NCBI GenBank assembly: GCA_964419615.1
Contig: CAYQPU010000020.1
Span: 1 to 30,204, forward strand
Reading direction: 5' to 3'
DNA length: 30,204 nucleotides
Origin: an uncultured Methanosarcinales archaeon
GTDB taxonomy: Archaea; Nanobdellota; Nanobdellia; Woesearchaeales; JAGVZT01
The notes under the pieces are model-generated. The model worked only from the letters and a program-made list of their open reading frames with translations, made no database searches and was not told the origin of the DNA. Shown here one piece after another: positions 19,417-19,939 of the stretch (within the stretch, counting starts at the first letter, position 1; every line of letters begins with the position of its first letter). A program made the translations under genes and the position numbers.

Positions 19417-19491
19417 TTTGTATATGCTAATACAAAAGATATTAAAAGAGTTTTTGTTTTCTGACTTATGCGAGCCTGTAGCCTAGTCCGG

Positions 19492-19660
19492 CGAACTTTT
19501 AGGAAAACACAAGGGAACCAAAGATTCCCTGTGCCAGGAAAACTACTTTTTCCTTGGGTTCGATCAAAACACAAGGGGCTTACAGCCCCTTCCCGTGGTC
19601 AATATGAAAACTATTTAACCACGACACTTGATGGATTTACAATATTAATTGTTCGGATAT
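19492..19660 (+). other. tRNA intron 1 (169 nt, position 19/20, D loop)
   Basis: BHB: central helix GTCC/GGAT, bulges GG|C and AT|A, inner helix GAAC/GTTC. Confidence 0.85.
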
Positions 19661-19848
19661 ATAGGGCAGCAGCCTCCTACGCTGATGAAGAATCTCGGAG
19701 TAGTACCCTTGTGGTATGAAGAGAGTTAGCTGAAGCGCAAGAAAGCTGCGGGTCGGGGGTTCAAATCGACCTTTTAAAAAAAGGTCGAACAAAACAAATG
19801 GGACTTGCAGTCCCATGACGTGACCATCACAAATACAAGATAGTCACG
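19560..19848 (+). repeat. Duplicated 64-nt structured module in introns 1 and 3 (19560-19623 and 19785-19848)
   Basis: 43 of 64 identical without gaps; five compensatory base-pair changes. Confidence 0.85.
19680..19743 (+). ncRNA. tRNA intron 2 (64 nt, position 37/38); candidate box C/D guide sRNA
   Basis: Terminal stem CGC/GCG, box C TGATGA 19683-19688, C'-like GGTATGA 19713-19719, box D CTGA 19730-19733. The splice motif is relaxed (CTCC against CAAG gives 2 of 4 pairs) and box D' is unclear. Confidence 0.6.
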
Positions 19849-19905
19849 GTACAAAATTTGGTCTGGTACTAGTTTTGTTCGAATTAAGTAAAAGTTCGTT
19901 GAAAG
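19766..19905 (+). other. tRNA intron 3 (140 nt, position 59/60, T loop)
   Basis: Central helix TTCA/TGAA, bulges AA|T and AG|T, inner helix CGACCTTTTA/TAAAAGTTCG (9 of 10 pairs). Confidence 0.85.
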
Positions 19906-19939
19906 TCCTCCCAGGCTCGTTTATTTAATTGGGGATTTT

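Follow-up and report, generated by a model that had tools for sequence, protein, structure and literature searches.

The 30,204-nt window analysed here, contig C20 of an uncultured woesearchaeotal genome (G000; 1.48-Mb assembly, 99.4 % complete, 33.4 % G+C), contains a tRNA-Arg(CCU) gene that three introns divide into four exons. It is very likely that this is the sole and functional tRNA-Arg(CCU) gene of the genome, in which an old box C/D intron in the anticodon loop (intron 2) is combined with members of a young, copied family of bulge-helix-bulge (BHB) introns in the D and T loops (introns 1 and 3). Positions without a contig prefix are those of the window, and the features of the gene are collected in Table 1.

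The tRNA-Arg(CCU) gene and its splice junctions

Exons of 20, 19, 22 and 14 nt, interrupted by introns of 169, 64 and 140 nt at positions 19/20, 37/38 and 59/60, had been proposed in a sequence-only reading to join as a canonical tRNA-Arg(CCU). The coordinates, lengths and positions proved exact, and ARAGORN recognises the spliced 75-mer as tRNA-Arg(CCU) with a standard cloverleaf. The acceptor, D, anticodon and T stems (7, 4, 5 and 5 bp) are paired throughout, with wobbles at U13-G22 and G51-U63, and the anticodon and T loops have 7 nt each. The invariant nucleotides are in place (U8, A14, G18-G19, U33, A37, G53, U54-U55-C56, A58 and C61), as are A20 and C35, which are arginine identity elements in bacteria; CCA is not encoded at the 3′ end. 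The exons have a G+C content of 64 %, against 33.4 % genome-wide. In a genome-wide split-aware scan the locus reached a stem score of 40 out of 42, and no false candidate of that scan scored as high while also having good BHB motifs and an exon G+C content of at least 50 %. Chance origin of the exon set is excluded.

The TATA-like box ATATTAAAA has the same spacing as the TTTATATA or TTTAAATA boxes upstream of most other tRNA genes in the genome, and the gene is followed by a T-rich run; oligo-T terminates archaeal transcription. As had been anticipated for standard finders, neither ARAGORN nor the Rfam tRNA model called the gene from the unspliced genomic sequence. The only open reading frame there is the previously listed one of 83 aa (19468-19719). 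A second Arg-CCU gene was not found in the split-aware census of the genome, itself a lower bound, and AGG is the second most used arginine codon in the long open reading frames (6.6 per 1000 codons). At 373 nt, the intron load of this gene is the largest in the genome.

When the locus was compared by BLAST with 40 relatives, orthologues were recovered in ten genomes. All four exons are retained in each of the ten and no pair of the acceptor, anticodon or T stem is lost; compensatory changes occur at 2:71 (A-U to C-G), 27:43 (G-C to A-U), 29:41 (A-U to U-A), 30:40 (G-C to C-G) and 6:67, and several more in the T stem. The one-intron orthologues, in G007 and G018, are called tRNA-Arg(CCU) by ARAGORN. 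Intron sizes, in the order D loop/37-38/T loop, are 169/64/140 nt in the present genome, 175/44/82 nt in the same-genus genome G001, 64/64/62 nt in G004, 0/64/12 nt in G002, 27/66/36 nt in G008, 0/64/0 nt in G007 and 102/64/0 nt in G006; G018 has 66 nt at 37/38 and 0 nt in the T loop. The G006 genome is unpublished, and nothing concluded here relies on its values. Across the relatives, the D-loop intron spans 0-175 nt and that of the T loop 0-140 nt. In the G003 orthologue (G003:C5, L006) an extra intron of ~31 nt was observed within the anticodon stem (29/30), beside the C/D intron and a 19-nt T-loop intron.

The BHB motifs were scored as a 3-nt bulge, a 4-bp helix and a second 3-nt bulge; by the established rule, the cut follows the second nucleotide of each bulge. 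BHB-type junctions had been proposed for both non-canonical sites, and introns 1 and 3 indeed carry 4-bp central helices and 3-nt bulges. At intron 1 the outer (CCUA/UAGG), central (GUCC/GGAU) and inner (GAAC/GUUC) helices are of 4 bp each, the bulges are GG^C and AU^A, and the CGAAC at the 5′ end of the intron pairs with GUUC at 19651-19654. At intron 3 the outer helix is the T stem (4 bp), the central helix is UUCA/UGAA (4 bp), the bulges are AA^U and AG^U, and the inner helix, formed by CGACCUUUU with AAAAGUUCG, is shifted by one nucleotide. The motif at intron 2 is relaxed rather than canonical, with two of the four central pairs (C32-G and U33-A only) and a 5′ splice site that sits in a 4x2 internal loop; its outer helix has 4 bp, its inner helix is the terminal stem of the C/D RNA and its 3′ bulge, AA^A, is intact. 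Of the 29 T-loop introns in the genome, 25 combine an intact outer helix with all 4 bp of the central helix.

The unconstrained minimum-free-energy structure of the precursor was rejected as the functional fold. It joins the start of intron 1 (19489-19501) to the end of intron 3 (19889-19901), which are complementary because both hold the terminal repeats of the intron family described below. This pairing could compete with correct folding of the precursor.

The box C/D RNA at 37/38

On sequence grounds, the 37/38 intron is a putative box C/D guide RNA, old and conserved in tRNA-Arg(CCU) across the order. It has a terminal stem, CGCU/AGCG (19680-19683 with 19734-19737), a C box, (c)UGAUGA (19683-19688), a D box, CUGA (19730-19733), an internal hairpin (19704-19707 with 19713-19716), a conserved C′-like AUGAAGA (19716-19722) and a D guide at 19720-19729. 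The boxes, terminal stem and internal hairpin are kept in eight of the nine related genomes compared, from at least five GTDB families. The two stems show covariation: pairs form in 91.7 % of the alignment cells, 11 cells are changed on both sides, and none of 500 shuffles equalled this. Among Rfam models the archaeal C/D family sR23 scores best, but its 14.1 bits fall short of the gathering score of 45; this shortfall counts for little because the C/D families of Rfam are lineage-specific. The internal spacer is 7-10 nt, depending on box placement, where about 12 nt is the norm for C/D RNAs. Fibrillarin and Nop5 are present in the genome.

Most relatives share the D guide, AGAGAGUUA, which has a 9-nt contiguous match to UAACUCUCU in the 23S rRNA (context GGGAG-UAACUAUAA-CUCUC), and the D′ side has a 9-nt contiguous match to ACUCCGAGA in the 16S rRNA; the chance of such a match is ~0.04-0.08 in either case. 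Applied to the 23S match, the fifth-nucleotide rule points to the C after UAUAA, at position 5; this C is position 1948 of the 23S gene, and the 16S candidate lies around position 1372-1380. By the E. coli helix 69 loop, UAACUAUAAC, the match is taken to be helix 69 and the target the equivalent of C1920; mapping of the 23S target onto E. coli numbering by BLAST gave no match. In G014, the sole relative with the relevant part of the 16S gene, there is one possible compensatory change at the D′ guide plus one new mismatch. Intron 2 probably directs ribose methylation of rRNA, with the C1920 equivalent in 23S helix 69 and a 16S hairpin as the best candidates. Guidance of the host tRNA itself, as in tRNA-Trp, was considered and rejected, with just CUCC/GGAG (4 bp, C32-C35) able to pair.

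The copied introns at 19/20 and 59/60

All long introns of the genome, those at 19/20 and 59/60 in tRNA-Arg(CCU) among them, follow one plan. A 5′ end of the form (U)CGAMCUUUU is followed by a CCAAAA linker, a hairpin (P2), a second hairpin (P3) and ACAC, with further hairpins after the ACAC in some cases. The 5′ end pairs either with a nearby AAAAGKUCGA, forming a hairpin (P1), or with AAAAGKUYN at the 3′ end of the intron by the splice site, where it forms the inner helix of the BHB motif. The P3 loop, of 17-19 nt, ends in ACAAGAUR, and its 3′ half is conserved in sequence. At the DNA level the family has terminal inverted repeats, CGAMCTTTT...AAAAGKTCG, of which an internal copy makes P1, and some introns contain tandem P1 units.

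The P2-P3 module was aligned from 15 units and represented by a covariance model, R1. All 195 pair cells of the alignment are standard pairs and 10 of the 13 pairs are changed on both sides, which none of 500 shuffles equalled. Of the 20 copies that the model finds in the genome, all in the sense orientation of the host RNA, 19 lie in introns of the D, anticodon and T loops of tRNA genes and the last in the gene for RNase P RNA. There are ten copies in the same-genus genome G001 and single weak matches in three other genomes of the family; for 33 other families of the order, the genomes searched gave no match. The module matches no Rfam family, and no published description was found for such an intron family or for a C/D intron in tRNA-Arg.

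Two copies of the module lie in tRNA-Arg(CCU), one in each of introns 1 and 3. A third copy in intron 1 (19501-19545) was rejected, R1 scoring just 2.2 bits there (E 3.3). The first sub-unit of intron 1 is closed by CGAAC (19492-19496) with GUUCG (19558-19562), and similar units are found in the T-loop introns of tRNA-Ser(GGA) and tRNA-His.

Table 1. Features of the tRNA-Arg(CCU) locus, in window coordinates
Feature	Position	Strand	Description
Promoter box	19439..19447	+	TATA-like, ATATTAAAA; 24 nt upstream of tRNA position 1; purine-rich AAAAG before the box
Exon 1	19472..19491	+	20 nt; acceptor 5′ strand, U8, D-stem 5′ strand, D loop through G19; kept in 10 relatives
Intron 1 (19/20)	19492..19660	+	169 nt; canonical hBHBh′ motif; 175-nt orthologous intron in same-genus G001
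Intron 1, first sub-unit	19501..19562	+	AAAACACAA, hairpin 19512-19530, UGUG, hairpin 19534-19557
P2-P3 module, copy 1 (intron 1)	19563..19629	+	P2 19573-19591, P3 19594-19623, then ACAC; R1 76.8 bits, E 3e-22
Exon 2	19661..19679	+	19 nt; A20-A37: D-stem 3′ strand, anticodon-stem 5′ strand, anticodon CCU at 19675-19677
Intron 2 (37/38)	19680..19743	+	64 nt; putative box C/D small RNA; boxes, terminal stem, internal hairpin
Exon 3	19744..19765	+	22 nt; A38, anticodon-stem 3′ strand, variable loop, T-stem 5′ strand, UUCAAA
Intron 3 (59/60)	19766..19905	+	140 nt; P1 19766-19788, linker, P2-P3; 3′ end AAAAGUUCG (19890-19898) complementary to the intron's 5′ end
P2-P3 module, copy 2 (intron 3)	19788..19854	+	P2 19798-19816, P3 19819-19848; R1 79.2 bits, E 6e-23
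Exon 4	19906..19919	+	14 nt; U60, T-stem 3′ strand, acceptor 3′ strand, discriminator G73
T-rich run	19920..19926	+	TTTATTT, probable archaeal terminator; T-run behind most tRNA genes of the genome

The introns show what is expected of transposed introns. Similar introns occur across tRNA species and positions, those of unrelated tRNAs being 70-86 % identical, and orthologous sites show presence, absence or replacement; at 59/60, G001 has P1 plus a cargo unlike that of the present genome. With their many, lineage-restricted copies, the P2-P3 introns fit mobile BHB introns better than functional cargo. P1-type palindromes also lie mostly within RNA genes (43 of 51). Two others, at C48:4848-4870 and C40:9390-9416, which are followed by a CCAAAA or TCAAAA linker, are not in any recognised RNA gene and may represent copies of the element that stand alone or have decayed.

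A P1 plus P2-P3 insert of ~165 nt was observed in the RNase P RNA gene (C3:47511-47935, minus strand, L078; Rfam RF00373, 101.5 bits), between the 5′ strands of that RNA's own P1 and P2 (GAGUGG and CUCAAC) and the conserved GAGGAAAGUCC. Infernal places the 5′ end of the RNase P RNA wrongly, inside this insert. A BHB intron ending at GAGGAAAG^UCC was rejected for this gene, as it would delete the universally conserved GAGGAAAGUCC, which Infernal aligns perfectly. The insert may be removed by splicing or retained as an expansion of P3. The 16S gene (C1:6953-8592) is 1640 nt long against a model of 1478 positions and the 23S gene (C1:9006-12666) 3661 nt against 2987, which implies insertions or introns in the rRNA genes; no P2-P3 copy was found in either with the R1 model.

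The architecture of tRNA-Arg(CCU) is ordinary within its genome, and it is the tRNA architecture of the genome that is remarkable and sketchily documented in print. For the census, a split-aware finder was written in which the D, anticodon and T loops may each contain an intron, and genes with exons of at least 50 % G+C, a set cleanly separated from false candidates, were retained. This identified at least 37 tRNA genes, 15 of them with three introns; the introns number 76 in all (18 in the D loop, 29 at 37/38 and 29 at 59/60). The introns amount to ~4.7 kb and the exons to ~2.8 kb; 17 introns are of at least 100 nt, the longest being 191 nt. Standard tools report only 10 tRNAs in this genome, the others being hidden because of their two or three introns each. 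The census is a lower bound that missed at least tRNA-Lys genes on C21 and C13 and a tRNA-Thr gene on C22. Isoacceptors including Met, Pro and Lys-UUU were not recovered by the finder, therefore more hidden tRNA genes exist and the real total is probably more than 40. One three-intron tRNA (C13:18097-18263, minus strand) is identified by ARAGORN in its spliced form as Ile with anticodon UAU; the usual anticodon of archaeal tRNA-Ile2 is CAU, with agmatidine.

A single EndA gene was found in the genome (219 aa; C3, L013, 1474-2133, minus strand). Both domains, N-terminal and catalytic, are encoded, there is no large insert, and the catalytic residues (Tyr, His and Lys) align with those of M. jannaschii 1A79 and N. 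equitans 3IEY_A. A Lys-rich N-terminal extension of ~50 aa (MPRKKKAVEKKITKKKVAKKTKK...) is absent from solved EndAs and may be an RNA-binding tail relevant to long or relaxed substrates. RtcB is also encoded, because of which release of the introns as circles is plausible. The canonical motifs at most introns in non-canonical positions fit an alpha4-type EndA and the trend described for DPANN archaea (PMC5829648), and suggest that a plain alpha-type EndA can bear a very heavy load of such introns if the motif is canonical.

Alternative explanations and relation to known systems

Combined, these data are best explained as follows. The gene's own TATA promoter would drive a precursor of ~450 nt, EndA would cut the three BHB motifs and RtcB would then join the four exons. 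Intron 2 would be an old and useful passenger, a C/D guide. Introns 1 and 3 would be recent insertions of a genus-specific, expanding modular family with terminal inverted repeats, which would have entered many tRNA genes, in their D, anticodon and T loops, as well as the RNase P RNA gene; as selfish or neutral passengers, these introns would persist by rebuilding a spliceable BHB motif.

Several observations weigh against this explanation. The sole EndA resembles a plain alpha subunit with no obvious specificity loop, which is difficult to match with the relaxed motif at intron 2; the strict alpha4 EndAs studied so far reportedly do not cut relaxed motifs (PMC5829648). For the guide, no clear CUGA-like D′ box was found in intron 2, the conserved sequence there being GGAGUAGU, and the D-guide match overlaps the C′-like box; because of these two features the rRNA target assignments are weak. 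In addition, the nearest relative, G001, has a 44-nt non-C/D intron at 37/38 and no copy of the guide was found elsewhere in that genome, therefore either the guide is dispensable or the targets are wrong. For introns 1 and 3, no transposition machinery was identified in the genome, nor an RVT_1 reverse transcriptase, and the P2-P3 covariation reflects selection on RNA (or hairpin) structure, for which a junk intron has no obvious need. Splicing, ligation and circularisation are all deduced from sequence features, and the same holds for the methylation targets and for mobility.

Two candidates raised by these points were set aside. As a new location of the guide in G001, only one near match, with 2 mismatches, came up, and it falls within a helicase-like coding sequence. 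Retro-homing of the introns by a resident reverse transcriptase was rejected on the same negative RVT_1 search. Since the P2-P3 stems covary, hairpin formation is under selection, and the selected hairpins could serve compact folding that aids the BHB motif, mobility, or a function of the released RNA.

A DNA-level hairpin transposon, similar to miniature inverted-repeat transposable elements (MITEs) or to RPEs, is possible, if doubtful. It would have spread via its terminal inverted repeats and survived where the transcript can be spliced, the RNA structure being a by-product of DNA palindromes; it overlaps with the explanation preferred here and differs only in the mechanism of spread. The inverted repeats with their internal copy, the tandem P1 units, the two P1-like units beyond known RNA genes on C48 and C40, and the absence of reverse transcriptase from the genome are all as such an element would predict. 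However, the 43 of 51 P1 and 20 of 20 P2-P3 units in RNA genes are found in about 0.5 % of the genome, and the elements end exactly at the BHB-compatible sites 19/20, 37/38 and 59/60, always on the host strand. Strong target specificity or an RNA-level step is therefore needed.

The sequence-only reading had cast the precursor as a carrier for several intron-derived RNAs. This holds for intron 2 as a conserved C/D RNA, whereas introns 1 and 3 belong to a lineage-restricted, 20-copy family without antisense matches. In its full form, with all three introns as useful RNAs, the tRNA gene as a promoter-and-processing cassette freeing stable, probably circular RNAs, and the P2-P3 modules as functional small RNAs such as protein-binding scaffolds or guides, the proposal is unlikely. 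The conserved guide in intron 2, the full retention of the P2 and P3 stems through compensatory changes in 15 copies, the conserved ACAAGAUR in the 3′ half of the P3 loop, the sense orientation of every copy and the presence of RtcB are what it would lead one to expect. Against it, the module is limited to one genus, three weak matches aside, is present in 20 redundant copies, matches no Rfam family and gives way to different cargo at the corresponding site of the sister genome G001. The longest complements of the P3 loops to 16S, 23S and spliced tRNAs are no better than those of shuffled loops (mean 7.3 against about 7.7 nt), and on this result the loops were rejected as antisense guides.

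There is similarly a small chance that the family moves at the RNA level, an RtcB-circularised intron re-entering the BHB-forming loops of stable RNAs by reversed EndA and RtcB reactions and then becoming fixed in DNA, or that the circles themselves, once released, have a function in the cell. If the elements were mobile as RNA, the covarying hairpins would keep the excised circular intron compact. That the four GC-rich pieces are a pseudogene or chance assembly, with AGG read through wobble by the tRNA-Arg(UCU) gene at C21:21551-21905, is scarcely credible and already contradicted by the comparative data, given the perfect cloverleaf, the compensatory changes in a gene conserved across the order, the promoter and terminator at their expected places, intact BHB motifs, and a like architecture in 14 other tRNA genes, single-copy isoacceptors among them.

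As the nearest published parallel, multi-intron tRNA genes and 'transposed' BHB introns have been described in Thermoproteales (Sugahara 2008; Fujishima 2010; via PMC4033280, PMC4090602 and PMC8450103). There, as in the present genome, near-identical introns occur in unrelated tRNAs and at different positions, with lineage-specific expansion. Unlike there, the host is a member of the DPANN group (Woesearchaeota) with a single alpha-type EndA rather than an (alpha-beta)2 enzyme; the introns reach 191 nt and 17 have 100 nt or more, where PMC4033280 gives 'less than 100 nt'; and they are modular, with covarying hairpins, terminal inverted repeats and one copy in the RNase P RNA gene. Intron density is also higher, at least 2.05 per gene compared with 1.54 in Pyrobaculum calidifontis (PMC8450103).

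The precedent for intron 2 is the euryarchaeal pre-tRNA-Trp, the intron of which is a box C/D guide RNA (Clouet d'Orval 2001; Singh 2004; via PMC7994747). The two share a C/D RNA in a 37/38 intron, release through a BHB motif, and boxes and terminal stem that adjoin the splice sites. In the present case the host is tRNA-Arg(CCU), the guides miss the host tRNA and have their best matches in 23S helix 69 and 16S, and both an atypical D′ box and a relaxed BHB motif set the intron apart.

More tRNA gene disruption in DPANN archaea with alpha4 EndA, multi-intron tRNAs among them, was reported by Kaneta et al. 2018 (PMC5829648), with one Woesearchaeota genome included, and incomplete DPANN tRNA sets were taken there to point to undetected disrupted genes. 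That study gives no gene-level description, intron families, C/D intron or long structured introns, and the tRNA-Arg(CCU) locus provides a concrete case. In Asgard families, ~2.2 intervening sequences per gene lie at BHB motifs, many missed by standard software (bioRxiv 10.64898/2026.10.13.758758). The intron density is close to that found here (at least 2.05), and the BHB sites and the failure of standard tools are shared. In contrast, the median Asgard intron is 22-23 nt long and neither copying between genes nor a mobile-element route was found there, whereas the long introns of the present genome form one copied family.

A 99.4 %-complete genome in which standard tools see 10 tRNAs, and in which at least 37 are present, warns against inferring tRNA loss from annotation, and the hidden genes speak directly to the gap in tRNA sets raised in PMC5829648. 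A single gene here pairs an old, probably functional C/D intron with introns that are young, copied and structured. In sister genomes these sites are vacant or hold other contents, which makes this a natural system for the origin and spread of BHB introns, a question still open for Thermoproteales and Asgard archaea. RNA-level mobility, or a function of the circles, would if true be the first concrete answer on how archaeal tRNA introns spread.

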